55,216 bases of DNA from a virus (lineage: Duplodnaviria > Caudoviricetes). Below are positions 604 to 37,782 of the stretch, one piece after another (position 1 is the stretch's first letter; each line of letters starts with the position of its first letter). The notes below the pieces were generated by a model. It was not told where the DNA came from. It searched no databases and was given only the letters and a program-made list of their open reading frames with translations. The position numbers and the translations under genes were made by a program. The stretch is from positions 1-55,216 of the IMG/VR virus record IMGVR_UViG_3300038549_000019; one strand, given 5' to 3'.

Positions 604-604
604 A

Positions 605-2470: not shown

Positions 2471-2478
2471 TTCTGCTC

Positions 2479-2835: not shown

Positions 2836-2838
2836 ACG

Positions 2839-3321: not shown

Positions 3322-3323
3322 TT

Positions 3324-3620: not shown

Positions 3621-3684
3621 GTAATCCTCCTATGGTTGCAAGATAGGTGGGAGGATTCCGCCCCCCACCTAATCTTACGGCATA

Positions 3685-4329: not shown

Positions 4330-4359
4330 TGTTATCTCTCCTTTCTATAAACAAGGGAA

Positions 4360-4385
4360 AGGCGGGCCGGGAATCCAGCCCGCCT
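4360..4385 (-). terminator. Hairpin after coat gene, probable intrinsic terminator
   Basis: aggcgggc-N10-gcccgcct followed on the minus strand by ttcccttgttt. Confidence 0.55.
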
Positions 4386-4396
4386 GGGTATCACAA

Positions 4397-5671: not shown

Positions 5672-5683
5672 TTCTTTTCTCCT

Positions 5684-6529: not shown

Positions 6530-6539
6530 GATGCGCCTT

Positions 6540-8654: not shown

Positions 8655-8676
8655 AGTACCCCCATATGATTATAGG

Positions 8677-10005
8677 TTATCTCCACCTGCTAGCAACAGG
8701 CAATGGTATAAATTCCTGTTTGGCTGGTTTGGGATTAACGATGCCGCCGAATAGCTCTGTCAATACCCATATCCAGGCGTCGGCCCTATTAGGTGATTGT
8801 GTCCCAGTGTATCCTATGGTTGACATCGCGGTAAGCTCGTCCTCAAGTTCTCGGAACTCTCCAGCGTGGCGTATTTTGCCTTGCTCATACAGCGGGGCAA
8901 ACGGTTCCGCTCGAACGGCCTTCCCGCGTGTTGCGGTAACTGCCCGGTATGGCGTCCTGGGCCTAGCCGTCTGAATGACTTGTTGGACCATGGCCCCGCC
9001 GTAGTTGGTCTCACCAACCACCACATCCGCCCTATGGCGATCATACGCGGTCGCTACAACCCGGCTCCACGTAGAGGGCCCGGCCTTGACTGTGCAGTCC
9101 TCAAGCAGGTATGCGTTTCCGTCCGTCCCTAGGCCGCCAACAACGATACCGATGGCATCGTGCTCCGATCCGTCCCCGTCCCCCGCCCCTGATGGGTCAA
9201 CACCGATCACAACCCGCACTAGGTCAGGAAGTGGTTTATCGAGCCAACGCCACTTATCGATATCCTCATCATGGAATAGCGCGTTGGGGGTCGCATCGGC
9301 AAACTCGCCAGCCAGAAACCGTTTTTGCAGACGCGGGCTCAATCCCTTGAGGGTCTCCAGGTAGGCTCCATCGATGTTATCTCTGTTGTCATCCGGGTTA
9401 ATTTTGAACCATGCATACTCTTCTGGGTCTCGCACCGGGAATTTTGTTTCAGGATCCCGTTTTTCAATGAACATGCGATACGTCCAGTGGTTTTTGGAGG
9501 GCGGGTTCTCGTCATAATACATGCGTGGCTTGAGCGTGGTTGGCTCACATCCCTCCATCCGTTGGTCCACTAGCTGCGCCAGACGCGTTACTGCGATATC
9601 TCGGGACCCCTTGGGTATCTGTGACGCCTCATTGAGATAGATGGTGGCGAATTCCATCCCTAGGATCTTCTCGGTGCGCTCTTTATCATCGAGCCCTCCG
9701 AACCATATTTGTGAACCATTCTCAAAGTCTGCGTGCCAGTCTGTTTTGTCCAACTTGTATTTAACACCTTGGAAGCATAGCCGCATCACCTTCGGGAAGG
9801 TGTCCAACACAACCGATGCCTTCACGGCATTAAACCTGTATCGCAGGATAGCGTGACGGCTGTTCGGGGCTTTGAGCGCCCGCATACATACGGCTCTCAC
9901 CAATAGGAAGGTCTTGCCACTGCGGCTTCCACCCACCAGCATAATATGCGTTGCGGGCCCGGCCAGAACCCGCATTGCCTCCTGCTGTTTTTCGGTGAGC
10001 TTCAC
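8677..10005 (-). CDS. terL: Terminase large subunit
   Basis: Walker A GGSRSGKT, Walker B IYLNEA, nuclease GVDPS and PNRADA. Confidence 0.93.
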   Translation of the reverse strand: MKLTEKQQEAMRVLAGPATHIMLVGGSRSGKTFLLVRAVCMRALKAPNSRHAILRYRFNAVKASVVLDTFPKVMRLCFQGVKYKLDKTDWHADFENGSQIWFGGLDDKERTEKILGMEFATIYLNEASQIPKGSRDIAVTRLAQLVDQRMEGCEPTTLKPRMYYDENPPSKNHWTYRMFIEKRDPETKFPVRDPEEYAWFKINPDDNRDNIDGAYLETLKGLSPRLQKRFLAGEFADATPNALFHDEDIDKWRWLDKPLPDLVRVVIGVDPSGAGDGDGSEHDAIGIVVGGLGTDGNAYLLEDCTVKAGPSTWSRVVATAYDRHRADVVVGETNYGGAMVQQVIQTARPRTPYRAVTATRGKAVRAEPFAPLYEQGKIRHAGEFRELEDELTAMSTIGYTGTQSPNRADAWIWVLTELFGGIVNPKPAKQEFIPLPVASRWR

Positions 10006-10331
10006 AGCTCTTGGTCCTCTTTTGTGGCTTTAATCACAACTGGCCCGCCGCCGTCTCCAACGTGCTCGGTGCGCTGAAGCTTGGGGATGTGGTATTCAAT
10101 GACGTCCATCATGCACCGCCACGCCCTTTCGGCTCCCTGCTCCTCTGCGATTTGGTCCAGCCAATCCTGCAATCGCGGGATGTTCCCTTCAACAAGGGCA
10201 GCTATTGCTTCTCTGGCGTTTTGCGTTACCTTATTAGGTATCCCAGCTCGTGACCCTCCACCGCGTCTTTCTCCTGGCTTAGATCCACGGGACGGCACTT
10301 TTTTACGCTCTCCCTGCCGTTTATCGTCCAT
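10002..10331 (-). CDS. terS: Terminase small subunit
   Basis: 109 aa directly upstream of terL; G.PNK and PKLQRTEHVGDGGGP motifs. Confidence 0.75.
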   Translation of the reverse strand: MDDKRQGERKKVPSRGSKPGERRGGGSRAGIPNKVTQNAREAIAALVEGNIPRLQDWLDQIAEEQGAERAWRCMMDVIEYHIPKLQRTEHVGDGGGPVVIKATKEDQEL

Positions 10332-10373
10332 TTTGGCCCCTCCTTCACCACTAACTCACGTTTTTCTTCATTC

Positions 10374-10517
10374 CTAGCACAACTGGCCACGCGGAGGCCA
10401 GAGATCACGGCTAGGCTCTTTGTCCCTACCGGGCAGTTTCGGTGCCTCGGCAGTCGGTGTTTCCTTCACCTCTTCCGGGATGGGTTGCTGGTCCTTCTTT
10501 TCTTCCTCAGGGTTCAT
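10374..10517 (-). CDS. Small acidic hypothetical protein (47 aa, not in ORF track)
   Basis: Hand translation MNPEEEKKDQQ...; RBS GAGGAG; frame kept in copy 2. Confidence 0.4.
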   Translation of the reverse strand: MNPEEEKKDQQPIPEEVKETPTAEAPKLPGRDKEPSRDLWPPRGQLC

Positions 10518-10519
10518 GT

Positions 10520-10741
10520 CTACTCCTCATGTTTAAACACCTTCGCTTCCAGGTGCTTCACCCTAGTATCGATCGTTTCGACTTTCTGTTCAAGGACGGC
10601 GGAGCGGGTTTGCCCGGCATAGACCGCCGTGCGCATCTCTCTAACCTCATAAGCCGCCCACCCCAGCACGGCCCCCAACAACCCCTTGGCAATCCATTCC
10701 CAAGTCACCGATCCGCCGCGTTGTCTTTGCCCACCAACCAT
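10520..10741 (-). CDS. Small membrane / coiled-coil protein, possibly lysis-related
   Basis: Hydrophobic segment WIAKGLLGAVLGWAAY; TAATG coupling to upstream gene. Confidence 0.5.
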   Translation of the reverse strand: MVGGQRQRGGSVTWEWIAKGLLGAVLGWAAYEVREMRTAVYAGQTRSAVLEQKVETIDTRVKHLEAKVFKHEE

Positions 10742-11301
10742 TAACGCCTCCCTGCGCAAAAACCGAGGGCCAGCCCCCCGGCAACCCCTTGCAATCGCCC
10801 CCTCCAAAGGGCACCGCGATTTGCTGCCTTTTGCGCCTCCAGCGCTAATTCTAGGCTGACAACCTGTCTCCTACGGGCGTCAGCCTCATCCCTGTATGCA
10901 TCTCCCCTGATAGTCAGGGCCTCGATTACCTTGTCGCGGTCCTGAATGGCCACGTCTTGTGCTGCAATTAGCGCATCCTTAGCAACGTCCAGACTGGCCA
11001 GATCTCCAGCGGGTAGAGGCTCGGGACTCGGTAGGGTGACACCAGGTGTAGCGGGGCGTAGTTTGGCCACCACGGCGCGTAGCCGTGCAACCTCCAGGTC
11101 AGCCCTCCCCACAGCGGCCTTTGCCTCCTGTGCAGCCGTCTCCTGTGCCAGTGCCCTGGACCGCTCCGCATCAGCCCTCCTAGCCTCGTTTTTTGCGGTT
11201 TGTTCGTGTTGGGTTGCGACTGCCTGTATTTTTTTGCCGTGATACGCAAATGCCCCTGCCACAATGGCAAGGGCAATTACCGCCACGATGGGCCATCTCA
11301 T
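10741..11301 (-). CDS. Rz-like inner-membrane spanin
   Basis: N-terminal TM helix plus long Ala-rich coiled coil, downstream of endolysin and holin. Confidence 0.6.
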   Translation of the reverse strand: MRWPIVAVIALAIVAGAFAYHGKKIQAVATQHEQTAKNEARRADAERSRALAQETAAQEAKAAVGRADLEVARLRAVVAKLRPATPGVTLPSPEPLPAGDLASLDVAKDALIAAQDVAIQDRDKVIEALTIRGDAYRDEADARRRQVVSLELALEAQKAANRGALWRGRLQGVAGGLALGFCAGRR

Positions 11302-12353
11302 GCTGTCACCTCGAATAGTGCAGGCTGGTAGCCGCTCGTATGGTTCTGACAATGTGGGCTAAACCAAATGCGCTCTCTCCCCGCATTTGTTCGCCCAGCG
11401 CCGGTCCCCTGTGTGCCATACCCGCCTTGCGCTTTCCACGCAACCTTTACCCACCCGTGATCCTCTAATGTGTGGTGCCCTTCGCCTTCGTAGCCACACA
11501 ACGCTATTCGCAGGTTGGTTTTTCCCCCATTTGCCACACACCACTCTGTGACGTCGCTTGCTACAGTAGTTGACTCCTGCCTATAAACCATTTCCCTGTC
11601 ATCGACGCCGTAAGGTGGATCAAGAAAAACAGCTGTCAACCCCATTGATTCTGTTTGGCTACGGCCTAGGACCCTGGACCAGTCCCCACAGCATACCCGG
11701 ACATCCCGCAGCCGTTCTGCCAATTCTTTAAATACATCCAGAATGTCCCCATCCCTATCTGCGTCTTGCTTCTTGTTTATGCCAAGCCCAGGACCGCCCA
11801 AATATGGTATTTTCCGGTTAATACCCATCCCAGAATTGCCGATGTGCGGCATTTGCCGGTTAATACCAGCCTCTACACTCCCTATTTGTTTGGTTAACGC
11901 TAATACACCCTCATCATCTGGGACGGCAACCCACGGCCCCTTGCCACTGGCAAAGCCGGATCCAATCCAGCAGCACATGCCATAGACCCAATACCCTGCC
12001 ATCCGAGCATCGTAGTAGTCAGGGTCAGCCATCATCCGGGATTGATGCCTTTGTAGTCTGGTAACAATCCAAATATGCCTAGCGTGTAAATCAGCCTCGT
12101 TTACAGGGCACGATGCCCATCTAGCTACCTCGTCCGGGGCGTCCCGCGTCGATCGCCAGAAATTGGACACCAGTGCATCCAGATCGTTAATCGTTTCTGT
12201 TTGCGGCGGATGGGGGCGGGCCAATAGTACAGCCCCGGACCCAAAAAAGGGCTCCACATAGTTTTGACAATCGCCTAGCCGATCCCAAACCAGACTAGCG
12301 ACCGGCGATTTCCCGCCGAACCATGGGAATGGTGCCTTGAGACCATCAGTCAT
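11298..12353 (-). CDS. DNA adenine methyltransferase (Dam/D12-like)
   Basis: PFPWFGGKS, YVEPFFGSGAV, INDLD and catalytic DPPY; true start probably MTDGLK. Confidence 0.88.
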   Translation of the reverse strand: MTDGLKAPFPWFGGKSPVASLVWDRLGDCQNYVEPFFGSGAVLLARPHPPQTETINDLDALVSNFWRSTRDAPDEVARWASCPVNEADLHARHIWIVTRLQRHQSRMMADPDYYDARMAGYWVYGMCCWIGSGFASGKGPWVAVPDDEGVLALTKQIGSVEAGINRQMPHIGNSGMGINRKIPYLGGPGLGINKKQDADRDGDILDVFKELAERLRDVRVCCGDWSRVLGRSQTESMGLTAVFLDPPYGVDDREMVYRQESTTVASDVTEWCVANGGKTNLRIALCGYEGEGHHTLEDHGWVKVAWKAQGGYGTQGTGAGRTNAGRERIWFSPHCQNHTSGYQPALFEVTA

Positions 12354-12603
12354 TCTTTGCCCCGCTGTCTGGCTTGCGGTAGGCAACCCCGGCCAACCCG
12401 GCAACAATACCACCAAGACCCAGCAGGGCGGATACTGCCCCAGTGCCAAGATCGCCATGCCGGTAGGCCCACCATGCGCAGGCGATTGCAAGCCCACCGA
12501 ACCCAAGACACAATGCAACCGATGCTAAGGCGACTACGTGGCGCTTGGTTGAGAGCGTCCCCCCGGGCCCGCTCAACACCTCCTTGATCCACTCCTTAAT
12601 CAC
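12346..12603 (-). CDS. Putative holin
   Basis: Two TM segments, adjacent to endolysin. Confidence 0.6.
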   Translation of the reverse strand: MIKEWIKEVLSGPGGTLSTKRHVVALASVALCLGFGGLAIACAWWAYRHGDLGTGAVSALLGLGGIVAGLAGVAYRKPDSGAKND

Positions 12604-12669
12604 TGATGCACCGGCCAATATGGCCAATCGTACGGGTTATCATCGTATGGATCGCCGGGGTCATCTTTC

Positions 12670-13125
12670 CTACCCATGGTGGACCTCTTCGTAATGTGGT
12701 GTCCCTGTTTTGTCGTAGACCGCGATATAGGCCTTATGCCTAGGCTCCTTGCCGATCCGTGGTGCCTGAACGTGGATCCAGATTGTATCGCCTTTGATCT
12801 CAAGAATGAGCTTATCAAAGACGGGCCCACGATTGATAATTTCATTGAATGCACCCAGGCAGTCCATACCCTTGGGCACAAAATCACAGGCGCGGCCCTC
12901 AAGATGGGCGCTTTGTGGGTGCCCCCCCACCTTGCGGTTGACAGCCTTAGACCTGTAGGCAGAGTTGACCACTAGGGGGACACCCAGCAGCCCCCGGATT
13001 GGCTCAAGAATCGAGTCAGCAAGGATGACCAGATTAGTCCCGGCCTCCATATCTGGGTCATTGCCCAATCCAGTGCTGGTCTTGGTCAACTCGTCCAGTG
13101 TGAAATGGGGTGATAGGTGCTGCAT
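12670..13125 (-). CDS. Endolysin, peptidase M15 family
   Basis: LSPHFTLDEL, SAYRS..VN..VGG, SAHLEGRACD, WIHV zinc-peptidase motifs. Confidence 0.88.
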   Translation of the reverse strand: MQHLSPHFTLDELTKTSTGLGNDPDMEAGTNLVILADSILEPIRGLLGVPLVVNSAYRSKAVNRKVGGHPQSAHLEGRACDFVPKGMDCLGAFNEIINRGPVFDKLILEIKGDTIWIHVQAPRIGKEPRHKAYIAVYDKTGTPHYEEVHHG

Positions 13126-13156
13126 TGTGTCCTCACTCTCCAGGATATACTTAGAT

Positions 13157-13561
13157 TTAACATTCGCAAGTGTGGTCTATCCACACGATGCCGAGATTTT
13201 GTGCAGCCCACACTTCAACTTGTGTTACATACTGCTGAAACTCTGATACAGTCAGTGATGACGTGCTTTGTGCGGTTGTTCCGCCGCACGGGAGGTCTAC
13301 AACGCCCAAAAATCGGCGCTTCAGGAACTCGTGCCAGATTTCGGCTGTGTATTGCCGTCCCTCGATCCAGGCATCCTCCTCTAGCTGATGCAGTAATCTC
13401 CAATAATATTTGTTTTGCGCCCTTGACCGTGTGGATTTCTCCGGCTTGATCTCGATTGCAAGTGGATTGCCTTCTAGCGCATATTTTTCCCATGCATCCT
13501 TGCAGTAGGATACCAACGCTTCCAGGTTCCGCTCGGATCGTAGGTAGTATGTCCTCATCAT
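13157..13561 (-). CDS. ninB: NinB/Orf family recombination mediator
   Basis: RSRAQNKYYW and STSSLTVSEFQQYVTQVEVWAA motifs. Confidence 0.8.
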   Translation of the reverse strand: MMRTYYLRSERNLEALVSYCKDAWEKYALEGNPLAIEIKPEKSTRSRAQNKYYWRLLHQLEEDAWIEGRQYTAEIWHEFLKRRFLGVVDLPCGGTTAQSTSSLTVSEFQQYVTQVEVWAAQNLGIVWIDHTCEC

Positions 13562-13761
13562 GGCTCTAGCCCGTTGTCCCGGAATAGCGCGATTAGGGCC
13601 CTAGCCTCGTCCCAGGTAACGTATCCTGTCCCCCGGCAAACCCGCTTGGCACTGCGCTCCGGGATGCCGAGTCGGGCCATCTCTCGATACAGATTGCCAG
13701 CCCCGCGCAAAACACACGCCAAAGCCAGCCACGGCTCAGGCAGATTAGTTGGTCTCCCCAT
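13558..13761 (-). CDS. Small HTH-like protein
   Basis: RBS GGAGG; similar to the 15801-16010 product. Confidence 0.55.
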   Translation of the reverse strand: MGRPTNLPEPWLALACVLRGAGNLYREMARLGIPERSAKRVCRGTGYVTWDEARALIALFRDNGLEP

Positions 13762-13787
13762 GTCCCCTCCTGTCATCATTATAGGCC

Positions 13788-13823
13788 ACTGTCTACCCAA
13801 TGCAACCCCATCCGTAGTTTTTT
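13788..13823 (-). promoter_or_regulatory. Sigma70-like promoter
   Basis: A-tract, TTGCAT-N16-TATAAT upstream of 13761 start. Confidence 0.6.
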
Positions 13824-13901
13824 GGGTGGGTCTATTGCTGATTGCGAACCGCTAGTATTGTTTTCATTGGCGTTGTGGCTGGTCTTAGTACGTGTTCCCC
13901 A

Positions 13902-13953
13902 GAATTGGGCGTACCGTCATCCCATGGACGGTACGTCCAATTCAAAGTTAGGC
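13902..13953 (+). other. Left boundary site of cassette array: hairpin plus GTTAGGC, no R'' box
   Basis: gaattgggcgtaccgtc/gacggtacgtccaattc stem followed by GTTAGGC at 13947-13953. Confidence 0.6.
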
Positions 13954-13955
13954 GC

Positions 13956-14129
13956 TCAACGCAGCACGCACCAAAGCGCCCACCCAAGGCCGAAGCCAAT
14001 TCCCACTCGAAGCAGTTCCTTCCTTGCGAGGTTCTTTCCATCCTGAAACCCCCGCACGTAGGCCTGTTCCTCTGGTGTTTTGGCCAGATGGGCCTGTAAG
14101 CCGTCAAGCAGTCGTTCAAAATCAGGCAT
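13956..14129 (-). CDS. Cassette A gene 2, 57 aa with C-terminal hydrophobic segment (not in ORF track)
   Basis: Hand translation MPDFERLLDG...WALWCVLR; stop 2 bp from GTTAGGC. Confidence 0.6.
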   Translation of the reverse strand: MPDFERLLDGLQAHLAKTPEEQAYVRGFQDGKNLARKELLRVGIGFGLGWALWCVLR

Positions 14130-14289
14130 TCGCCACCTTCTTTCTCGTCACCTCAAAGATTTCGGTTACCCCGTCCTGGGCGTAGACCGCTGCGTAATGC
14201 CGCGCCTCGCGCAGGGCGTCTTCCCTGGGGCCAACGGCGCTGGCAACTGGTTCCCCGTCACACCTCACTTCAAATTCAACTTCTTCCAT
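14122..14289 (-). CDS. Cassette A gene 1, hypothetical
   Basis: MEEVEFEVRC; RBS AGGAG. Confidence 0.6.
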   Translation of the reverse strand: MEEVEFEVRCDGEPVASAVGPREDALREARHYAAVYAQDGVTEIFEVTRKKVANA

Positions 14290-14319
14290 GGTTTCTCCTG
14301 TGGTTCCAACCAACAACGC

Positions 14320-14403
14320 GCCTAACCCTCACATCAACAACGCTCACTTCGTTCGCTCGGACCCAGCCCTTGCGGGCTGGTCCGGTTATGTCGGGCGTTA
14401 GGC
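14320..14403 (+). repeat. attC site 1 (84 bp, branched)
   Basis: GCCTAAC-N5-CATCAAC...GTTATG-N6-GTTAGGC. Confidence 0.88.
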
Positions 14404-14691
14404 AGCTAGACGTGCCTGCACGCAGAACCTGAAAGATGTCGCTCGCCACAGCCGTCGATACCACCCTGGCCACTGCGCTACAGCAGTCCCTAGGGCTGGC
14501 AGAAAGCTCCCGTAAAAACCCATGCGGGCTGGTCCACTGTATTCGGATGGTGCCCAAATACCCCAAGAAGGGCCTTGCCAATTCCCGCCAAGGTGGCCTA
14601 GATGGATGGCCGTGTAGCCCACTTGGATGCGGAGCAGAGTCCCTTTGTTTTGGCCCGAATGGGTGTTCCTGTAGATGGTGCAGATTTTCAC
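14398..14691 (-). CDS. Cassette B hypothetical protein
   Basis: GTG start with AGGAG RBS; TAA lies inside R' of attC1. Confidence 0.5.
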   Translation of the reverse strand: MKICTIYRNTHSGQNKGTLLRIQVGYTAIHLGHLGGNWQGPSWGIWAPSEYSGPARMGFYGSFLPALGTAVAQWPGWYRRLWRATSFRFCVQARLAA

Positions 14692-14720
14692 GCTTTTTCT
14701 CCTTTCGTTTCGTTTACGCG

Positions 14721-14800
14721 GCCTAACCGGTCATTCAACACCGGCCTTCGGCCTCGGACCCACGGCTCTGCCGTGGGCCGGTTAATTCGGTTCGTTAGAC
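14721..14800 (+). repeat. attC site 2 (80 bp, branched)
   Basis: GCCTAAC-N5-ATTCAAC...GTTAAT-N7-GTTAGAC. Confidence 0.88.
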
Positions 14801-15403
14801 CGCCTCGGCCCATGCTTGGGCAGAACGGGCGATCCCCAGCAGCAGATCCCGAAACTCGGGCGGCGTCCGCTGCCTGTGTTTACTGCACATGTTCGCAATC
14901 ACCCCGCAACGTCGGGCGCTTTCGTACCCGCGTTCCGCTAGGCGTTTCTCTGGCAACCGCTGTTCTGCTGGTCCCCAGATCAGTTCCGGGGGCTTCGGAC
15001 CCACCGCCAACAGCCAGGTCTTTTTCCGGGCCTTGTGCCCGTAGTGCCCCTGCTCGACTTCGCAGGTCCATTCGGCGTAGCCGATCCGCAGCCATCCGGC
15101 CTTGGGCGGCTTGGGAATCCCGAAGGCATCCCAGGCTTTCGAGTGCGCGGGGTGCTCCAGCACTCCCCCGAACTGGCGCAGGCTGGCCAGCGCGGCGGCA
15201 AAGCATCCGTCATCATCGCCCGTCTGGTGGACCTTCTTCGTCATGCTGCCTTCCGAGAAACGCCCCCACCTCTGGCAGGGCGGGTGCGCCACAACGGGGT
15301 GCGGACCCTCGTAGCGCCTGGCGTCCCGCCCGATGTCCCACGGGTCCACCTCGGGCAACCCGTAGTAGCAGCCATTTTTCTCGACATACAGCGCCGCGAT
15401 CAC
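14795..15403 (-). CDS. Cassette C: short C5-cytosine methyltransferase-like protein
   Basis: VVAHPPCQ (motif IV-like), VLEHP (VI-like), RKKTWL (VIII-like), RTPPEF. Confidence 0.6.
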   Translation of the reverse strand: MIAALYVEKNGCYYGLPEVDPWDIGRDARRYEGPHPVVAHPPCQRWGRFSEGSMTKKVHQTGDDDGCFAAALASLRQFGGVLEHPAHSKAWDAFGIPKPPKAGWLRIGYAEWTCEVEQGHYGHKARKKTWLLAVGPKPPELIWGPAEQRLPEKRLAERGYESARRCGVIANMCSKHRQRTPPEFRDLLLGIARSAQAWAEAV

Positions 15404-15425
15404 TTTTCCTCCTCTCCGGTCGTCG

Positions 15426-15507
15426 GTCTAACCATTCCATCAACAACGCCCCTTCGGGGCTCGGACCCAGCCCTTGCGGGCTGGTCCGGTTATGTCGGTC
15501 GTTAGGC
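15426..15507 (+). repeat. attC site 3 (82 bp, branched)
   Basis: GTCTAAC-N5-CATCAAC...GTTATG-N6-GTTAGGC; inner stem same as attC1. Confidence 0.88.
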
Positions 15508-15699
15508 GACACCATTCTGTTTCAGCCATCGATACAGTTCGCCCTTGATGTGGTCCGTCAGCTTCGTCCCAAAAGGACAGGTCTTTGCCCACTCATTCAC
15601 CAAGCCTCCGCTGTGGCAAATGAACTCTTCCAGCTTGTTGATTCTGGCTTGTAGATGCGCCTCTCTTACTGTGCATACCTCGTGATTGCGGTCCTTCAT
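15502..15699 (-). CDS. Cassette D hypothetical protein
   Basis: MKDRNHE with GGAGGA RBS; TAA inside R' of attC3. Confidence 0.55.
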   Translation of the reverse strand: MKDRNHEVCTVREAHLQARINKLEEFICHSGGLVNEWAKTCPFGTKLTDHIKGELYRWLKQNGVA

Positions 15700-15747
15700 G
15701 ATTCGATTCCTCCACACTTTTTATTCTGTGTATGATTCGCGCCAGTC

Positions 15748-15806
15748 GCCTAACCGGGCGCTCAACCGGACCCCTGGCGGGGCCGGTTAGCTCGGAAGCG
15801 TTAGGT
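15748..15806 (+). repeat. attC site 4 (59 bp)
   Basis: GCCTAAC-N5-GCTCAACC-GGAC...GGTTAGC-N8-GTTAGGT. Confidence 0.92.
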
Positions 15807-16010
15807 GGCTTCGGGCGGCTCCACGCCAGCCTCCCGGAATACCTGCTCAATCAGGCGCCTGGCCGGGCCTCTGGGCTGGCGCGTCCCGTGAGCCCACTGG
15901 TGGACGGTGCGGGGGGTAGTCCCCAGAGCCTCAGCTACCTGGGCCACACCCCCCAGGATCTCCGCCAGGCGGTCCCAGGGGGCGGGGAGTGTTGTGGGGC
16001 GCGGCATCAA
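15801..16010 (-). CDS. Cassette E gene 2: Cro/XRE-like HTH protein
   Basis: VAQVAEALGTTPRTVHQWAHGTRQP helix-turn-helix. Confidence 0.75.
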   Translation of the reverse strand: MMPRPTTLPAPWDRLAEILGGVAQVAEALGTTPRTVHQWAHGTRQPRGPARRLIEQVFREAGVEPPEAT

Positions 16011-16279
16011 ATCCCCAGCAAAATGCGAGCGGCTCCGAGAGCCTTTTCCTCAGAATCGCCGGGGACAAAACCATCCTCGGCGGAGGGGCAGCACTCGCGC
16101 AGGGCGATCACGAAGTTTTCCGCTGCTTCTGTGTAGGCCCCGAAATCGTCAAGGCTGGAGATAGCTTCGAGGGCCTTCTTGATCTTCCACTCGAAAACTC
16201 GGGTGTCGTCGAATTTCCCAGACAAAACGACGATTCGTGCTCGGATCGCGTTCAGGATTTCAATCTTGACATGGCTCAT
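16007..16279 (-). CDS. Cassette E gene 1, hypothetical
   Basis: MSHVKIEIL with AAGGAG RBS; stop overlaps HTH start. Confidence 0.6.
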   Translation of the reverse strand: MSHVKIEILNAIRARIVVLSGKFDDTRVFEWKIKKALEAISSLDDFGAYTEAAENFVIALRECCPSAEDGFVPGDSEEKALGAARILLGI

Positions 16280-16313
16280 CTCGGCTCCTTGTGTCCTGGG
16301 CTCCTTGCCCGAC
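16274..16313 (-). repeat. 40-bp leader/RBS element, identical inverted copy at 23506-23545
   Basis: gtcgggcaaggagcccaggacacaaggagccgagatgagc. Confidence 0.9.
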
Positions 16314-16377
16314 AACACAATATCGGCTCAATGTTCCGAATGCGCAAGGGGGGGCAAAAGATTTTTTTAGGCCCGCC

Positions 16378-16436
16378 ACCTAACCACTCGCTTAACCGGA
16401 CCCCTGTCGGGGCCGGTTAGCTCGGAACCGTTAGGC
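16378..16436 (+). repeat. attC site 5 (59 bp)
   Basis: ACCTAAC-N5-GCTTAACC-GGAC...GGTTAGC-N8-GTTAGGC. Confidence 0.92.
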
Positions 16437-16682
16437 CTCTGGCTCTTGGTCCCATCCCGAGTCCTCGCGCATCCTCTTCCCGCACCATCGGCAACAGGTC
16501 CAGTGGTGCCCCAGCCCATTCCCCTCCCACAGGCCGTTATCCTCGTGGGGACACTGCTCGATCAGTGCCTTTTCGGCAGGGCGGTAGATCGTGTCGTCGT
16601 ACTCCCGCATTCTGCGGCTCGCCTCGCGGGTGCGCTCCCACAGCAAATTCTTCAGCGCGGCTTTTATCTCGGGTCCGTTCAT
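16431..16682 (-). CDS. Cassette F hypothetical protein with Cys/His motif
   Basis: MNGPEIK, AGGAGG RBS; CPH...CRWCG; TAA inside R' of attC5. Confidence 0.6.
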   Translation of the reverse strand: MNGPEIKAALKNLLWERTREASRRMREYDDTIYRPAEKALIEQCPHEDNGLWEGNGLGHHWTCCRWCGKRMREDSGWDQEPEA

Positions 16683-16714
16683 CTTTCCTCCTATGCCCGC
16701 CCCGTCTCTCATCG

Positions 16715-16773
16715 GCCTAACCCGTCGCTCAACCGGACCCCTGGCGGGGCCGGTTAGCTCGGGAGCGTTAGGC
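16715..16773 (+). repeat. attC site 6 (59 bp)
   Basis: GCCTAAC-N5-GCTCAACC-GGAC...GGTTAGC-N8-GTTAGGC. Confidence 0.92.
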
Positions 16774-16774
16774 G

Positions 16775-17113
16775 CTACTTGAACAGTGCTTCAAAGATTT
16801 TGCCGCGAGAGTAGCTGGATTCCAGGCGCTTCTTCACTTCGTCCGTCATGCCCCTAGCGAGTTCTTCTGTGATCTGGTTTGCGGTGATGATGGCAAGTGA
16901 AACAAGCCCTTCTTTGGATTCGACAAGTTGAGCTTTAATCACCGGCACAATTTCAGTAGCCATGAACGCGGTAACTTCATCCTGGATTAGCTTTGAAACA
17001 ATAGGGCTCATCTCCCAGTGGGCTTGTCGCGTAGCTTCGGCGGTCAATCCAGCAATAATGGAAGGTTTAGCCTCGTCCAAAATTGAAGCAATTTGTTCTT
17101 GCGAAAGCTGCAT
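16775..17113 (-). CDS. Cassette G hypothetical helical protein
   Basis: MQLSQEQ with GGGAG RBS; TAG 1 bp from attC6. Confidence 0.65.
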   Translation of the reverse strand: MQLSQEQIASILDEAKPSIIAGLTAEATRQAHWEMSPIVSKLIQDEVTAFMATEIVPVIKAQLVESKEGLVSLAIITANQITEELARGMTDEVKKRLESSYSRGKIFEALFK

Positions 17114-17127
17114 TGCGTTTCTCCCGC

Positions 17128-17227
17128 GCCTAACTCGGCGCTCAACCGGACCCAACCGCCACGGGCATCCGGCTTTATTCGTGTTTGGACCAATGGCGGT
17201 TGGTCCGGTTAGCTTGGGCCGTTAGGC
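17128..17227 (+). repeat. attC site 7 (100 bp)
   Basis: GCCTAAC-N5-GCTCAACC-GGACCCAACCGCCA...TGGCGGTTGGTCC-GGTTAGC-N7-GTTAGGC. Confidence 0.9.
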
Positions 17228-17228
17228 C

Positions 17229-17492
17229 TCAACGCCAGTTAACATGCATGCCTTCGGTTTCTCTGTGGTCCCACCGGTGCCCACACATCTCACACACCTT
17301 TTCAGACAGAGCAATATACCAAAATGCATCACCTTTGGTCACTAGTCGGTGCTGTGGTCGCAATAAAATGTAAGTGTTGAAACTCTCGCAATCTGGACAA
17401 CGCAATGTGTTTAACAAACCGCCTAACCCATCGTTCAACCCGGACGTTACCTCCATGGACTGCTGTTCTCCTTCGTTATTCGTGATTTCCAT
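17229..17492 (-). CDS. Cassette H zinc-ribbon-like protein, starting inside attC8
   Basis: CPDC...CEMCGH; GGAGGGAG RBS and ATG lie in the attC8 loop. Confidence 0.55.
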   Translation of the reverse strand: MEITNNEGEQQSMEVTSGLNDGLGGLLNTLRCPDCESFNTYILLRPQHRLVTKGDAFWYIALSEKVCEMCGHRWDHRETEGMHVNWR

Positions 17493-17545
17493 ACTCCCTC
17501 CAAAGTTTCGGCGTCGGTAACGCCGGTTAAGTCCAGTCGCTAGGC
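17421..17545 (+). repeat. attC site 8 (125 bp, non-canonical R' GCTAGGC)
   Basis: GCCTAAC-N5-GTTCAACC-CGGACGTTACC...GGTAACGCC-GGTTAAG-N7-GCTAGGC. Confidence 0.8.
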
Positions 17546-17836
17546 GCGATTCAAAGCGTTGCGCGCTATTTCGTGGGCATTTACGATATCCTTCGAATAT
17601 TGCACGGCCACCAATTCTTCCCGGTATCGTTCAGACCTGTCCTGCGTATCGTTCAACTGTTCGATAATTTCTAATAGTTGATCTTCTACTTGCCGTCCCC
17701 TTGTCGCCTCTATTCGGCTGAGCAGCCATTCCACTCTCTCGTCTAGCCCGGCGCGCTTCCACTCCGTGTCATCAAATAGGCCGTCATGCAGCATCCACTT
17801 GATTCGGTTGAGTTGGTCCTCTGTGTTGCCGTCCAT
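17540..17836 (-). CDS. Hypothetical protein
   Basis: MDGNTEDQ downstream of promoter; TAG lies in degenerate R' of attC8. Confidence 0.6.
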   Translation of the reverse strand: MDGNTEDQLNRIKWMLHDGLFDDTEWKRAGLDERVEWLLSRIEATRGRQVEDQLLEIIEQLNDTQDRSERYREELVAVQYSKDIVNAHEIARNALNRA

Positions 17837-17854
17837 CTCTCTCACCTCGATACC

Positions 17855-17909
17855 AGTATGGGCCCTGGGTGGCCCGTGCGCAAGGGGGGGGACGTGCAAA
17901 CTTTTTTTG
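17855..17909 (-). promoter_or_regulatory. Sigma70-like promoter pointing into the cassette array
   Basis: A-tract, C-tract, TTGCGC-N17-CATACT. Confidence 0.6.
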
Positions 17910-17912
17910 TTA

Positions 17913-18449
17913 TTAAGTGTTGTTACCACTGCCATAGTTGTCATCCCACCCGCCCGAATATGTTTCTTTATCCTGGGCGCACTCGATGCATTTATTTTTG
18001 ATTTCGCGCTGCAATCTATTATTAAGACCAACTTCGTACGATAGAGCGCTCATGAGCCCCTCGTTTTGTTTTTCTAGCCAGTCAATATGCCCATTGGCTA
18101 TTTCCAGCTCTTTTTTTAATTTGTTTACAATATTTTGCTGCATACAGCCTCCAATCAGTGTTTGCACCTGTAACCATAGCTCCGCCTCTGTCCCGTGCGC
18201 CGCCTCCCAAGTTTTCGGCCCAGCGTGATAGGCGACTCCCCATCCCCCTTGCCGGTGGTGGGCCGGGCACAGCGGGATCGAGTGGAGGTGGCAGGACCGT
18301 TTGCCCGCTCCAATATGCCGCCCTGTCTCAGGGTGGCGTTTGAGGTGGTGCACCTCCGCAGGCGTCCCAGGATACCCATTATTCAGGCAAACTATGCACC
18401 CAAGCGATACAATAGCGTCAAGGTATTCTTTCTCCTCATTTGTAGCCAC
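17913..18449 (-). CDS. Ref/DUF968-like HNH-type nuclease with in-frame C-terminal extension
   Basis: GCIVC..PAEVHH..IPLCPAHHR..HAG..WEAAHGTEAEL. Confidence 0.7.
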   Translation of the reverse strand: MATNEEKEYLDAIVSLGCIVCLNNGYPGTPAEVHHLKRHPETGRHIGAGKRSCHLHSIPLCPAHHRQGGWGVAYHAGPKTWEAAHGTEAELWLQVQTLIGGCMQQNIVNKLKKELEIANGHIDWLEKQNEGLMSALSYEVGLNNRLQREIKNKCIECAQDKETYSGGWDDNYGSGNNT

Positions 18450-18876
18450 TGTCTCGCCTCGCCTTCATTCGTGCCTTTGCGCGTCTGTTTGCTGCGATAC
18501 ATTTTTTGCATCGTCTATATCCAGGCTCTGGATCATGCGCTCCACAAGTGCTACATTTGCCCTCCTGTCGCCTGCGTTCTCGGTATTTTTTTGTTGCCTC
18601 GTCGTGGTACTCCTGGCAGTACCCACATTTTTGCCGCCCTGGCATGGCCTCCGCTTTACCGCATGATATACAAATTCCCAGCGCTGCCAAGGCCTTCCTG
18701 CGCACTAATACACGGGGCGGGGTCCCCTTCCTGTTGTCTCGGCACTTTTGGCACGATCCGAGCCCTCCGTCCGCAGGCGCACCACAATAATAGCAAAGGC
18801 CAGCCGCTCGTCTTTCCCAATAAATTGTCTTTTTTTGCTTCCTGTTTTTCCGTTGCTCCAGGATTTCCGCCCTCAC
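18436..18876 (-). CDS. Basic protein with three CxxC...CxxC repeats
   Basis: GLCYYCG..CQKC, GICISCG..CGYC, GKCSTCG..CKKC. Confidence 0.65.
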   Translation of the reverse strand: MRAEILEQRKNRKQKKTIYWERRAAGLCYYCGAPADGGLGSCQKCRDNRKGTPPRVLVRRKALAALGICISCGKAEAMPGRQKCGYCQEYHDEATKKYRERRRQEGKCSTCGAHDPEPGYRRCKKCIAANRRAKARMKARRDSGYK

Positions 18877-20225
18877 AATTGCCTCCCCTGCCGTGGAGCT
18901 TGTTGACTGGTATATGACGTTTCCCTAGTAACAACCTCATATCGTTGATATTGTCCGTTGAACGCCATGGGAATTTGCCCCAGGGGCCCCGCACGGTGCT
19001 TTGCGATGAGCAGTTCGGCTGTATTATCAACCTCTCCCGTATCGGGCTTGTTTTGCCGGTGCAAAAACAACACACAATCAGCATCCTGCTCGATACAACC
19101 AGACCCACGCAAATCCGCTAATCTAGGTGCCGTGCTGGATCTTCCTTCAACCTCCCGGTTCAGCTGACTCAGGAGTAATACTGGGACGTTTTTGTCTTTG
19201 GCACAGATTTTGAGAGCCCTGGTGATGTCCCCCAACGCTTGATCTTCCCTGCGTTTTGCGTCCGGTTGTGATATGAGTTGGAGATAATCTACTACCACCA
19301 GCGCAGGCAATTCACCGGCCTGCTGGATAGCCCTGTCAACCTGTGATACAATTTGTGATACATTGATAGCAGCCCTGTCATTTATTAATAGCTGTTTCTT
19401 CCGCAGGTCAGCCACTGCCCTGTGTACAAGCCCACGCTGGTAATCCCTAGCCGTGCCGGTGGTTAGCACGCTCATCGGGACAGACGCTGTATTGGCCACT
19501 AGCCTCGTCATGATCTCCTCGTCTGGCATCTCCAGGGAAAAAACCAGTACTGGCCCTGTGGCACATGCAGCCAATGCCCAGTTCAGAGCTAGGGCCGTCT
19601 TGCCTATCCCGGGCCTAGCGGCCAGCACATACAGCCTACCAGGGCACAACCCCCCCAGCACTGCGTCTACCCGAGCCATACCCGTTGGAGCACCCCCCGT
19701 CCAGGCATGGCCGTCTAACCGGCCTAGGACGCGTTCTAAGGCCTCCGAACACTGTTTCAGGTGGTTACCCTGCCCGCCAACCGCCAGACGCGCCAGAGAG
19801 GCCCCTAGGGCCTCTGCAAGGGCATCCGGTGTATCCTGGGCAAATGCGTCCCGTACGAGCTGGGTCCCCAGCCGGATCAAATCCCGGCGTTTGCGGTCCC
19901 GCTGGAGGATCGCTACCAGCGCCCCAGGCCGCGCCACGTCTAGCCCGGATAGGATCTCGGTCAGCCCGGACCAGTCGCCAACACGCCCGAGATCACCGTG
20001 GCTCCGCAGCTGGTCGGCTAGGGCGGCGAGGCTCAGCTCCTGCCCGGCGGCCTGGAGGGCGGCGGCAGCCCGGTAGACCGCCCGGTGCTGCGGCACCAAA
20101 AAATCCTCCGGGACCAGCACGGGCAGCCATTCCGCCGCATCCGCGTCTGCCCCTGGTGCGCACAGGGTGGTCAGCAGGTCGCGTTCCACGCGGGGGTCAT
20201 GGGGGGGGGCCTGATTTGGGGTCAC
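18873..20225 (-). CDS. dnaB: Replicative DNA helicase
   Basis: AARPGIGKT, FSLEM, VVDYLQL, LSQLNR, DLRGSGCIEQDAD, KHRAGP. Confidence 0.95.
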   Translation of the reverse strand: MTPNQAPPHDPRVERDLLTTLCAPGADADAAEWLPVLVPEDFLVPQHRAVYRAAAALQAAGQELSLAALADQLRSHGDLGRVGDWSGLTEILSGLDVARPGALVAILQRDRKRRDLIRLGTQLVRDAFAQDTPDALAEALGASLARLAVGGQGNHLKQCSEALERVLGRLDGHAWTGGAPTGMARVDAVLGGLCPGRLYVLAARPGIGKTALALNWALAACATGPVLVFSLEMPDEEIMTRLVANTASVPMSVLTTGTARDYQRGLVHRAVADLRKKQLLINDRAAINVSQIVSQVDRAIQQAGELPALVVVDYLQLISQPDAKRREDQALGDITRALKICAKDKNVPVLLLSQLNREVEGRSSTAPRLADLRGSGCIEQDADCVLFLHRQNKPDTGEVDNTAELLIAKHRAGPLGQIPMAFNGQYQRYEVVTRETSYTSQQAPRQGRQL

Positions 20226-21121
20226 ACTGTCACCTCCTCGAGTGGTAGCGGTTGTGGGTTATTGGTGCGCCTGTAAATTTCAGCTTTTACAGCCCGGGCC
20301 CACGGTGGTGTTTTGCCATTTTTCCCAGGCCCGAACCAGAACTGGATTGCATTTGGGTAGTCGCCTGGGTCCTGGAGCCAATCCAGCGCGGCAGCCTCCA
20401 GCAGGTCCAGGGTAACCTCCGGGTGGGCATCGAGCAAATCCTCGACTGCGCCAACGGCGTCGACGAGATCGTGGCGGATTGGCCTGCTGTCCCTGGACGT
20501 GGGCCACTGGGCTAGCAGGCGTTGCACTAGCCCCACCACCTCGGGCCGGTAGCCCTGGATACGCTCTGCCTGCCGTTTGCGCTTGGGTTTTGGCTCCGGC
20601 GCGGCAGCCGTTCCCCCCTGGGGGGTAGGGGGGGGTACTTCTGTTACTGATACTGTTACTGATACTGGTTCCGAAAGGGTTTCAGAAGGGTTCGCCAAGG
20701 GTTCCGAAAGGGTTTCATCTTTGGGCACCTCAGCCCCGAAGTGATGACCGCAGACCCTTAGAAAATCTAGCTTCCACTGGCATAGTTCAGGTATCTGCTC
20801 CACGATCTTCCGGGCGCACTTGCACTGATTGGGATTTTCGAGGGGGTTCCACTCCAGATGCTTGCGAACCCACACCCATTTAGAGGTTCCGCAACGGTTT
20901 GCAAAACCCTTCTGGAACAGTTCCGCAAACCCTTCTGAAACCCTTTCTGAACCCCATCCGAGGTCTTCCGCGACATAGGCATCCGGTAGCCTGAACACGC
21001 CTACAAGGGTCCCGTGTTGGCAGCTCAGGAGATAACACGCCAGGATGCGCCCCGTGTCGCTAAGGGTGGATGTGGTCTCACTGGACCAGAACGAGCTGTA
21101 GACCTTTCCGTAGTCGCGCAT
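20222..21121 (-). CDS. Phage replication initiator (lambda O-analogous)
   Basis: MRDYGKV..FW N-terminus; upstream of and coupled to dnaB; internal repeats. Confidence 0.7.
   Translation of the reverse strand: MRDYGKVYSSFWSSETTSTLSDTGRILACYLLSCQHGTLVGVFRLPDAYVAEDLGWGSERVSEGFAELFQKGFANRCGTSKWVWVRKHLEWNPLENPNQCKCARKIVEQIPELCQWKLDFLRVCGHHFGAEVPKDETLSEPLANPSETLSEPVSVTVSVTEVPPPTPQGGTAAAPEPKPKRKRQAERIQGYRPEVVGLVQRLLAQWPTSRDSRPIRHDLVDAVGAVEDLLDAHPEVTLDLLEAAALDWLQDPGDYPNAIQFWFGPGKNGKTPPWARAVKAEIYRRTNNPQPLPLEEVTV
20641..20953. repeat. Iteron-like repeats, candidate replication origin
   Basis: ggttccgaaagggtttca at 20667 and 20700; inverted copy at 20927-20953; ctgttactgata x2. Confidence 0.65.
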
Positions 21122-21174
21122 CTCACGCCCTCCGCTTCCACGCCTCGTCAATCCAGGAGGTTGTAATTGACAGC

Positions 21175-21964: not shown

Positions 21965-22018
21965 CCCTATGGTAGGATTTTGCTACGGTTGCGCAAGGGG
22001 GGGGCCAAGGTTTTTTTG
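21965..22018 (-). promoter_or_regulatory. Leftward early promoter with 25-bp operator-like box
   Basis: A-tract, C-tract, TTGCGC-N16-TACCAT. Confidence 0.7.
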
Positions 22019-22060
22019 TCCCCACCTCGTCATGTACTATATAGATGCGCATCTCTCCAC

Positions 22061-24439: not shown

Positions 24440-24670
24440 ATGCCACGCCCCATGCTCGCCAACCCCAACCGCAAACACTGTTCCATTTGTGGACACCCCT
24501 CCGGCCTGAAATCGTGTGCCTCCAGGACACGCCCCGGAGTTTATGCCCTAGACGTTGAGCTGCATAAATTGTTTCCCGAGGAGTGGGCCGAACCACGGCA
24601 AATCGCCGTTACGGTCTCGGGCCTCTGTAGTCGATGCGTTGTTGCCCAGAGGAGGTCGGAAAATGAATGA
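24440..24670 (+). CDS. Hypothetical Cys-containing protein
   Basis: AGGAG RBS; CSIC..CSRC. Confidence 0.5.
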   Translation: MPRPMLANPNRKHCSICGHPSGLKSCASRTRPGVYALDVELHKLFPEEWAEPRQIAVTVSGLCSRCVVAQRRSENE

Positions 24671-25424
24671 CAATATCGAGATTGCCACCACGCAACCATC
24701 ACAGATACCCGTTACCGCCCAGCCGTTTCACGCCGCCACCCCTCCGACACCAATGGAATTGCTGGTTATGGCAGTGTCTCAGGGCGCGCCTATTGACCAG
24801 CTTGAGCGGCTCATGGGCCTCCAAGAGAGGTGGGAAGCCAACGAGGCGCGGAAGGCCTACGTCACAGCCATGACAGCATTCAAAGCCGCTCCGCCCGAAA
24901 TCACGAAAAACAAGCTGGTCAGCTACTCTACCACGAAGTACACCCACGCCACGCTCGACGAAGTGGCTGGGAAGGTCGCCGCCGGACTTGCTGCCCATGG
25001 CCTCTCTCACTCGTGGAAGGTCCAGCAGGAAGGCGAGGTAATCACAGTCTCATGCACTGTAACCCACGCTCTGGGGCACAGTGAATCCGTGAGTATGTCC
25101 GGCGCTCCCGACAAGAGCGGCCAAAAAAACGGTGTGCAGCAGATCGCATCCACCGTCACCTATCTCCAGCGTTACACGCTCCTGGCCATCACGGGCCTCG
25201 CTGCGAAGGACCAGGACAGCGATGGGCGTGGGAATAAGCCCACCCTCGACATGGATGATGAAACATACCTTGCGCACATGGGCCGGATCGCCACGGCTGA
25301 CACGATGGAAGCCCTCCAGAAGGCATGGTCCGCAGCCTACAACGCCACACAGGATCGGGACACCCGCAGGGCCCTGACTGTGGCTAAGGACCAGCGGAAA
25401 GCGGAACTCGGAGGCCAGAAGTGA
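24663..25424 (+). CDS. erf: ERF-family single-strand annealing protein
   Basis: YTHATLD, HALGHSES, QQIASTVTYLQRYTLLAITGLA..DSDG. Confidence 0.85.
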   Translation: MNDNIEIATTQPSQIPVTAQPFHAATPPTPMELLVMAVSQGAPIDQLERLMGLQERWEANEARKAYVTAMTAFKAAPPEITKNKLVSYSTTKYTHATLDEVAGKVAAGLAAHGLSHSWKVQQEGEVITVSCTVTHALGHSESVSMSGAPDKSGQKNGVQQIASTVTYLQRYTLLAITGLAAKDQDSDGRGNKPTLDMDDETYLAHMGRIATADTMEALQKAWSAAYNATQDRDTRRALTVAKDQRKAELGGQK

Positions 25425-34098: not shown

Positions 34099-34170
34099 GC
34101 TCCCCCCATATCTGCGCTGCCGGATGCGTCTACTCAGCCACCCATAGTTTAACCCTAATATAATTAGATG

Positions 34171-35907: not shown

Positions 35908-35908
35908 A

Positions 35909-37774: not shown

Positions 37775-37782
37775 TTCTGCTC

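Follow-up and report, generated by a model that had tools for sequence, protein, structure and literature searches.

A reversed-polarity, integrase-less attC cassette array in the nin region of an uncultured phage

The IMG/VR virus record IMGVR_UViG_3300038549_000019, whose full 55,216 bases we call the window, carries at 13947-17545 a row of eight integron-type recombination sites (attC) that separate small genes of a podovirus-like phage with a lambdoid-like gene map drawn from PHROG matches. The array consists of eight cassettes, each holding one or two small genes, bounded by the eight attC sites and a lone R' box, and it is placed in the nin region, inside a leftward operon that runs from the replication genes to NinB, lysis and packaging. 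No gene for the integron integrase (IntI) accompanies it, and the polarity of its genes is the reverse of that found in bacterial integrons. The features of the array are given below by position, strand and description; lengths are in nucleotides (nt) or amino acids (aa), ORF stands for open reading frame, and the scores of the attC sites come from R1, a covariance model described after the list.

13947-13953, +, lone R' box GTTAGGC at the left end of the array, on the NinB side (seen in the sequence; weak partial covariance match at 13935-13953)
13956-14316, -, cassette 0, with ORF A (13956-14129, 57 aa) and ORF B (14122-14289/14316, 55-64 aa); no family found
14320-14403, +, attC 1, 84 nt, branched variable loop; 29.7 bits, E 1.1e-5; repeat family D4
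14398-14691, -, ORF C, 97 aa, GTG start with AAGGAG; its TAA stop is the TTA of the attC 1 R' box
14721-14800, +, attC 2, 80 nt, R' box GTTAGAC; 43.1 bits
14795-15403, -, ORF D, 202 aa, phrog_12600 (1e-62, unknown function); stop in the attC 2 R' box
15426-15507, +, attC 3, 82 nt; 34.1 bits
15502-15717, -, ORF E, 65-71 aa, no family; stop in the attC 3 R' box
15748-15806, +, attC 4, 59 nt, R' box GTTAGGT; 50.3 bits; repeat family D2
15801-16318, -, two-gene cassette, G (16007-16279/16318, 90-103 aa, no family) and then F (15801-16007/16010, 68-69 aa, Cro/YdaS-like helix-turn-helix protein; stop in the attC 4 R' box)
16378-16436, +, attC 5, 59 nt; 50.3 bits
16431-16712, -, ORF H, 83-93 aa, no family; stop in the attC 5 R' box
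16715-16773, +, attC 6, 59 nt; 55.6 bits
16775-17155, -, ORF I, 112 aa from the ATG at 17113, no family
17128-17227, +, attC 7, 100 nt, long variable loop; 59.1 bits, E 1.6e-13
17229-17492, -, ORF J, 75-87 aa, weak zinc-ribbon match; start inside attC 8
17421-17545, +, attC 8, 125 nt, degenerate R' box GCTAGGC; loop with the Shine-Dalgarno sequence and ATG (17492) of ORF J; 38.6 bits, E 4.5e-8
17540-18031, -, gene K, the first gene outside the array on the replication side, about 131 aa from the ATG at 17935; TAG stop supplied by the attC 8 R' box

All eight sites share one build on the + strand: a 7-nt R'' box, a 5-nt spacer, an L'' arm with one extra C, a variable loop, an L' arm, a 6-8-nt spacer and the R' box. 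An earlier note on this DNA, made by eye from the letters, had described eight palindromes of the form RYYYAAC-N5-L''...L'-N6-8-GTTRRRY, three of them exactly 59 nt long and the last ending in GCTAGGC, and this description holds in every particular, the inverted box pair RYYYAAC/GTTRRRY being complete in seven of the eight sites. In the folds, the bulged C (and A) of the + strand 5' arm, seen for example in attC 4, corresponds to a G (and T) in the 3' arm of the - strand, which we take to be the extrahelical bases named G20''/T12''. Standard pairs fill 91.6% of the 154 pair cells of the eight sites, as against 16-46% when the partners are slid, and compensatory changes are seen in 8 of the 22 pairs. 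The sites have near-identical arms of 20-25 nt, and the 3' arms of attC 1 and attC 3 agree at 98%. A plain regular expression (RYYYAAC-N30-140-GTTRRRY) gives 35 overlapping matches in the window, of which 17 fall in 14274-17532, 17 in a second copy of the array (49584-52842) and one elsewhere (34147-34300). An Rfam scan of the window gave no match, Rfam having no attC family.

The covariance model R1 rests on 27 attC sites taken from bacterial arrays and was searched with filters off over both strands of the 55,216 bases. Its source loci came from a search of contigs representing one genome per species, in which a 23-nt pattern drawn from a 3' arm of the window attC sites returned 11 bacterial loci, mostly from betaproteobacterial metagenome-assembled genomes (MAGs), Casimicrobiaceae and Thermoanaerobaculia; rows of palindromes of the same build, detected by regular expression or model, are present in 10 of them, and the 27 aligned sites show compensatory changes in 14 of 22 predicted pairs. 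R1 matches all eight window sites on the + strand (29.7-59.1 bits, E 1.6e-13 to 1.1e-5), returning for 8/8 the same starts and ends as had been read by eye, whereas the - strand of these sites scores 7-20 bits and the best unrelated place in the 55 kb reaches only E 3.6. The sites are co-oriented with a start-to-start spacing of 293-705 bp, in agreement with the units of 0.3-0.7 kb proposed earlier.

To orient these sites we used bacterial arrays that adjoin IntI. Two of the five tested bacterial genomes with attC sites of the same build encode an IntI above the NCBIfam cut-off, and around both genes intI lies on the - strand, followed downstream by 23 and 17 attC sites on +. This is the canonical geometry, and the + strand of R1 is therefore the conventional top strand. 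We regard the eight sites as confirmed to be genuine integron-type attC sites, judging by model and fold, and the array as a cluster of attC sites without an integrase (CALIN), the threshold of at least two attC sites by a sequence and structure model having been applied with our own R1 rather than with the model of IntegronFinder. Six-frame searches of the whole record with PF00589 and TIGR02249 gave no match, so that the absence of a recognisable tyrosine recombinase claimed in the earlier note stands. In place of a complete integron, then, the record has no intI and only a bare GTTAGGC box, attI and Pc not having been searched for as such; this box reads as the junction between the first cassette and the backbone, an attI- or attG-like crossover point.

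The earlier note overlooked the orientation of the cassette genes. Every supported ORF in the window array lies on the - strand, antisense to the attC top strand, with a start preceded by a Shine-Dalgarno sequence 14-30 nt from the R'' box of the right-hand attC. Among the nine terminal ORFs, five (C, D, E, F and H) take their stop codon from the TTA of an R' box, and for another, K, the degenerate box supplies it; family matches in the array were obtained for D and F only, both on the - strand. On the coding strand a cassette thus reads attC, ribosome-binding site, ORF and a stop, for which the crossover box (GCCTAA|C) usually provides the TAA, while the arrangement typical of a CALIN, a promoterless top-strand ORF upstream of its attC, is replaced here by supported ORFs on the bottom strand. 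To compare polarity between arrays, cassettes were assigned to a strand by a log-odds model of codon usage, for which 113-129 long ORFs from the retrieved loci served as training set, with the following outcome:

Window array, 7 cassettes: 0 sense, 5 antisense, 0 ambiguous, 2 no call
Bacterial arrays with the same attC type, 10 loci, 56 cassettes: 48 sense, 2 antisense, 3 ambiguous, 3 no call
Two complete bacterial integrons, 38 cassettes: 29 sense, 0 antisense, 1 ambiguous, 8 no call
Viral arrays, 66 IMG/VR contigs, 213 cassettes: 2 sense, 151 antisense, 3 ambiguous, 57 no call

The viral arrays in this comparison come from a set of 70 IMG/VR contigs retrieved with a 24-nt pattern of the attC 5' arm (the 3'-arm pattern had 0 matches in viral contigs), in 66 of which R1 finds a total of 282 attC sites in co-oriented rows of up to 20. 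The contrast between viral and bacterial cassettes (151/2 versus 2/48) has a p of 1e-41 by Fisher's exact test, and a cruder rule that takes the longest ORF of each of the 213 viral cassettes gives 110 antisense, 31 sense, 63 ambiguous and 9 without a call. Homology provides an independent check on the codon model: 140 sampled antisense ORFs match 66 PHROG families (E<=1e-5), and the 128 longest sense ORFs of the same cassettes match 0. Of the 151 antisense viral cassettes, 77 have a stop codon that coincides exactly with the TTA of the crossover box. Genes on the reading side of the array are co-directional with the cassette genes in 32/32 viral loci; at the far flank, antisense genes are seen in 18 loci, sense genes in 14 and a mixture in 9. 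Since these cassette genes run opposite to the canonical orientation, they are not ordinary bacterial cassettes borrowed by a phage; to judge from the sequences, the array belongs to a separate, polarity-inverted population of phage cassettes, a polarity common to at least 60 other uncultured phage contigs.

In some long attC sites the variable loop holds a Shine-Dalgarno sequence and an ATG (window 17421-17545, L082 6927-7029 and 7425-7514, L076 6610-6711), and the antisense ORF would then begin within the attC and be read through its L''/R'' arm.

Several of the viral loci share backbone proteins with the window (portal 55-57% identical, terminase 69%, NinB about 40%), and some array-bearing viral records reach a CheckV completeness of 98-100%. 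Antisense cargo in loci L012-L081 includes at least nine PHROG families of DNA or other methyltransferases, a PAPS reductase (two members) and a queuine tRNA-ribosyltransferase, suggesting a cargo of DNA-modification, anti-restriction flavour. The cargo of the window itself is phage-like and without resistance genes, as the earlier note had proposed, on the evidence of the helix-turn-helix protein F, the viral family of D and the weak zinc ribbon of J; the methylase-like character it ascribed to D is a lead only, resting on a C5 DNA methylase-like cluster as the nearest named neighbour of the viral family phrog_12600. For most cassette proteins, searches of Pfam, NCBIfam and PDB sequences found nothing. 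ORF B is 57-62% identical to a cassette ORF of L072, and D has homologues (about 60% identity) in cassettes of L046 and L048.

Further observations concern individual window cassettes. Cassette 1, which received no strand call, has on the + strand a 96-aa ORF (14436-14726) whose end falls within the R'' box of attC 2, as in the canonical arrangement, and which is about as long as ORF C on the - strand. A 46-nt element consisting of a G-run and then an A/T-run lies upstream of gene G (16332-16377, copy at 51642-51687) and recurs with 74% identity at 21981-22026, in the divergent early control region; the G-F cassette may carry its own operator or promoter. Among isolate phages (INPHARED, blastn) the only match is a homologue of gene D in Pseudomonas phage Persinger (67% nucleotide identity; L089 3001-3377, NC_054149.1 14822-15198). 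This homologue has no coding sequence of its own in the RefSeq record, where the match touches only the end of a ParB-like gene, and the GenBank twin has a hypothetical protein there; no attC was found in the 6.4-kb Persinger D locus.

Evidence that cassettes vary as units comes from the viral loci L020 and L076, in which presence and absence were compared for want of close relatives of the window phage (a DnaB search found none in viral or metagenome contigs). Their flanks are 94-99% identical, and they differ by one whole attC-bounded cassette, which in L076 lies between two attC sites of 57-59 nt; in L020 a single attC takes its place, flanked on its left as one of these two sites is and on its right as the other is. 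The first cassette is also replaced, the heterology beginning at a lone GTTA(G/T)GC box. The earlier note had proposed comparing gene-content boundaries in related phages, and in this pair they do coincide with attC sites and with the lone GTTRRRY box. The D-family genes of L046 and L048 have unrelated neighbours and unrelated attC sites; when the D cassettes of the three phages are aligned as DNA, the match is confined to the coding part and leaves out the flanking attC sites, from which we draw no conclusion on a travelling attC. Between L018 (6805-6922) and L062 (1380-1496) a single attC is shared at 96% identity, the backbones being only 76% identical and the rest of the arrays different.

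The array stands among phage genes. The following features flank it or belong to the same record:

13160-13561, -, NinB/Orf recombination mediator, array flank (phrog_72, E 1.8e-24)
13902-13943, no strand, 17-nt inverted repeat (hairpin), 94% complementary, no T-run after it; directly adjoining the array, on the way from the lone R' box to the neighbouring backbone gene
18876-20225, -, DnaB-like replicative helicase, array flank (phrog_19, E 5.4e-88)
20225-21151, leftward operon, DnaD-like loader (PHROG match)
49257-52855, +, second copy of the array, identical to the first; assembly wrap-around

The flanks are thus those of the earlier note, ninB on one side and the replication genes on the other. 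The leftward operon has the order loader, DnaB, zinc-finger protein, HNH-like protein, array, NinB, endolysin and DNA methyltransferase, and array and flanking phage genes share their coding strand within it. The rightward arm encodes an Erf-like protein (24555-25421) and an exonuclease (25421-26050). ORFs 8677-10005 and 6540-8654 can be read as terminase and portal by their matches to viral loci at 55-69% identity. No lysogeny repressor was identified among the PHROG-annotated genes of the phage.

The record amounts to 1.56 turns of a unit of about 35.3 kb (direct repeats spaced 35,304-35,310). The two turns are identical at about 12,000-19,906 (versus 47310-55216), that is, in the early/nin region, and diverge by 5-6% in the structural region (1-12,000 versus 35305-47300), with 793 mismatches and 17 gaps in 19.9 kb. 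This indicates a circular or terminally redundant genome in which the assembler probably passed through two strain variants, or else a recent recombinant. The copy of the array at 49257-52855 noted earlier is indeed present; given the wrap-around and the identity of the turns, it is not independent evidence. Read-level data were available as Logan contigs of one run only, probably the source sample. These contigs span the left junction (13807-14384) and inner attC sites, with a depth of 23-41 over 13672-17345 that is similar to the flanks. At 17346-17679 the depth goes down to 7.9, as against 23-45 elsewhere, and the joints 17456>17609 and 17680>17769 (depth 14.4) suggest a variant in the sample near attC 8 and the 3' end of gene K. 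Two further joints, 13955>16710 and 14743>15482 (the latter with 39 other letters), were not counted, their sides being of 30 letters or fewer and possibly from other attC-bearing DNA.

IntI of the same attC type was found in G051, G054 and the viral record G005. The last (L082 = G005:C1:12000-30726, positions 3561-7514) encodes a full-length IntI (428 bits): after its virion genes come, in leftward direction, an integrase, an excisionase and IntI, whose ORFs overlap at their ends, and the next four attC sites lie on + in canonical geometry to intI, with ORFs that are antisense and co-directional with intI. G005 looks like a phage-borne integron whose cassettes would be read towards intI from a phage promoter. 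In G029 an N-terminal fragment of IntI stands ahead of a similar array.

Taking these results together, we favour, with moderate confidence, the reading that the window holds a genuine integrase-less cassette array of reversed polarity, whose cassettes are shuffled as units by IntI supplied in trans. IntI recombines attC as a folded bottom strand, and its action in trans on these sites, at G|TT, is plausible. The enzyme could come from a host chromosomal integron of the same attC type, such as those of the betaproteobacterial MAGs, or from a co-resident phage that encodes IntI, and accessory and counter-defence genes would thereby be gained, lost and exchanged among phages as units. Cassettes would be transcribed from the phage operon and not from a Pc promoter. 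Polarity may have its own logic: if replication starts near the loader gene, the leftward fork would make the - (bottom) strand the lagging-strand template, and transcription would leave the same strand as non-template strand, so that the phage polarity would be the "hot" one. Moreover, a gene ending in TAA-C offers G|TTA on the opposite strand and could seed an array in phage polarity, after which only cassettes of the same polarity would be expressed from the phage operon.

Several observations weigh against this reading. IntI above the cut-off is encoded in only one of the 70 array-bearing viral records, and a match of any kind at E<=1e-5 is found in five of the 70 and in 0/7 of the records that are at least 90% complete. 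A prophage search with the portal protein matched 0/10 attC-matching genomes, and among 401 genomes of the order of G051 it matched four, at 28-31% identity, which yields no close prophage relative. No isolate phage in INPHARED carries such an array. No joint at a G|TT crossover was seen in the Logan contigs of the single run, and one of these contigs diverges at 16320, inside a cassette and outside any attC. The R' box of attC 8 is damaged, with GCT in place of GTT. The codon model gave no call for 57 of the 213 viral cassettes, and R1 is not fully independent of the window, its seeds having been fished with a window pattern, even if most of its 27 sequences come from the neighbourhood of the seeds. 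Finally, the single attC of L020 (a2) is not a simple hybrid of the L076 sites b3 and b4, so homologous recombination between similar attC sites explains the indel equally well, and the match of the L020/L076 boundaries does not separate IntI action from homologous recombination.

The last point leads to the strongest competing account, which we consider unlikely though serious. Boundary sequences have been proposed as homologies for module swapping in lambdoid phages, and the array could be a fossil in this sense: integron-derived attC sites that are no longer recombined and are kept as intergenic hairpins and short portable homologies, through which an Erf-like annealing protein, exonuclease, NinB or host RecA would swap nin modules. 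The phage does encode Erf, exonuclease and NinB, the near-identity of the 20-25-nt attC arms would offer substrates, and the L020/L076 indel lies between very similar sites of 57-59 nt and left no clean G|TT hybrid; the lack of GTT in site 8 and of IntI in 69/70 viral records fits as well. Yet features that matter to IntI only, namely the bulged base of L'', the asymmetry of unpaired spacers and GTTRRRY, are kept in the eight window sites and in the 282 viral ones, and the stems are preserved through compensatory change and not through sequence identity. The attC sites around homologous D cassettes are unrelated and hence poor homology substrates, and the heterology between L020 and L076 sets in at a lone R' box, on whose left there is no homology to attC.

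An improbable alternative is that the array doubles as the attachment site of the phage, which host IntI would integrate, as one giant cassette, into an integron of the host by attC x attI or attC x attC recombination. A complete unit without an integrase, and the 0/7 near-complete array-bearing phages with an IntI match noted above, would fit, as would the Vibrio prophage with excision points in two attC sites that appears in the text of Qi et al. (PMC9892861); the portal searches, however, turned up no prophage copy (0/10 attC-matching genomes; 4/401 of one order at 28-31%), no lysogeny repressor was identified, and eight sites are unnecessary for attachment. Very improbable is an artefact in which a piece of bacterial chromosomal integron was misjoined to phage DNA or the viral call is wrong: the record, assembled from a metagenome, does wrap around and combine two haplotypes, and it has the depth dip to 7.9 at 17346-17679, but the array is enclosed by phage genes of a single operon that share its coding strand, Logan contigs bridge its left junction and inner sites at a depth like that of the flanks, its gene polarity is opposite to that of bacterial arrays, and D comes from a viral protein family. 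Chance palindromes of the terminator or REP type, each directly behind a stop codon and without an Rfam match in a database that has no attC family, are hardly credible and are refuted, as far as sequence can tell, by covariance matches down to E 1.6e-13 with exact boundaries and by a build shared with attC sites adjoining IntI genes, no T-run following the hairpins.

Beyond an integrase-less array shuffled by IntI in trans, and tentatively enough that we would not put it at even chances, phages may keep a cassette pool of their own, the mirror image of the bacterial one: a shuffled counter-defence bank driven by host or phage IntI, in which the coding strand would be the recombinogenic bottom strand, attC would lie upstream of its gene and arrays would occupy the distal part of phage operons. 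Its cargo would comprise DNA methyltransferases, deazaguanine and other DNA-modification enzymes and small unknown proteins, and in its orientation replication and transcription would leave the bottom strand exposed.

The usual view of integrons is that of bacterial devices with cassettes read from the Pc promoter, and where cassettes originate is still an open question in the field. An attC array as large and homogeneous as this one, of reversed polarity and in a phage without an integrase, points to a second cassette population, one that would circulate among phages and owe its expression to phage operons; in other phage contigs the reversal is seen in 151 of the 153 called cassettes. It would link integron recombination to the turnover of accessory and counter-defence genes in phages, and the relation of attC strand to coding strand would give a sequence rule for telling phage from bacterial arrays in metagenomes. 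For a direct test the array provides defined sites, four of them 59-100 nt long, together with candidate integrases, and it flags about ten unknown small phage proteins as candidate anti-defence factors. A mirror-image pool, if it exists, would correspond on the viral side to the defence-gene banks that bacterial chromosomal integrons hold.

Among known systems, the closest in attC build are the sedentary chromosomal integrons of Betaproteobacteria-type MAGs (L002, L010, L011, L090, L091), which share with the phage the succession GCCTAAC, N5, L'' with a bulged C, variable loop, L', N6-8 and GTTAGGC in co-oriented arrays with a spacing of 0.3-1.5 kb. The difference lies in what surrounds the sites: upstream of a bacterial array stand intI and attI, and its genes occupy the top strand, whereas the phage array has no intI, genes on the bottom strand and, presumably, transcription from a phage operon. 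With the mosaic nin regions of lambdoid phages the array shares its position between replication genes and NinB and its small accessory genes; we know of no report of attC sites separating lambdoid nin genes.

Insertion of cassettes by IntI at GTT-containing "attG" sites outside integrons is described in the text of Loot et al. (10.1101/2022.09.11.507474), and the phage array likewise begins at a bare GTTAGGC in non-integron DNA, as it would if its first cassette had gone into a GTT site other than attI; that account, in the portion available, deals with bacterial chromosomes and single cassettes (SALINs) and describes no phage arrays. The inverted superintegron of V. cholerae described by Richard et al. 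2024, Sci Adv (PMC13108822), raised excision from <7e-5 to 3e-2, bottom strands on the lagging-strand template being far more recombinogenic. The bottom strands of the phage array would lie on that template too if a leftward fork starts near the loader gene; the inversion in V. cholerae was engineered and toxic, whereas the phage polarity is natural and the replication direction is presumed.

That a phage can carry attC clusters without an integrase, the base claim of the earlier note, survives as an observation and loses much of its novelty: Qi et al. 2023, Front Microbiol (PMC9892861), report 17 phage CALINs, of whose attC sites IntI1 recombined five of the six tested, and share with the window the lack of an integron integrase and a DNA methyltransferase cargo. 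Their arrays as figured have two or three attC sites, with cassettes described as oriented like bacterial arrays. The article text, its supplementary list of CALINs aside, which may bear on the point, contains no mention of inverted polarity that we could find, and a literature search, as far as the sources it returned could be consulted, brought up no report of inverted phage cassette polarity nor other work on phage attC arrays. Against the portion of that study available, the window stands out by its eight homogeneous sites, by genes that are all antisense and by a design that recurs in 66 IMG/VR loci; the base claim is known, while the size and homogeneity of the array, its reversed polarity and the generality of that polarity appear new.

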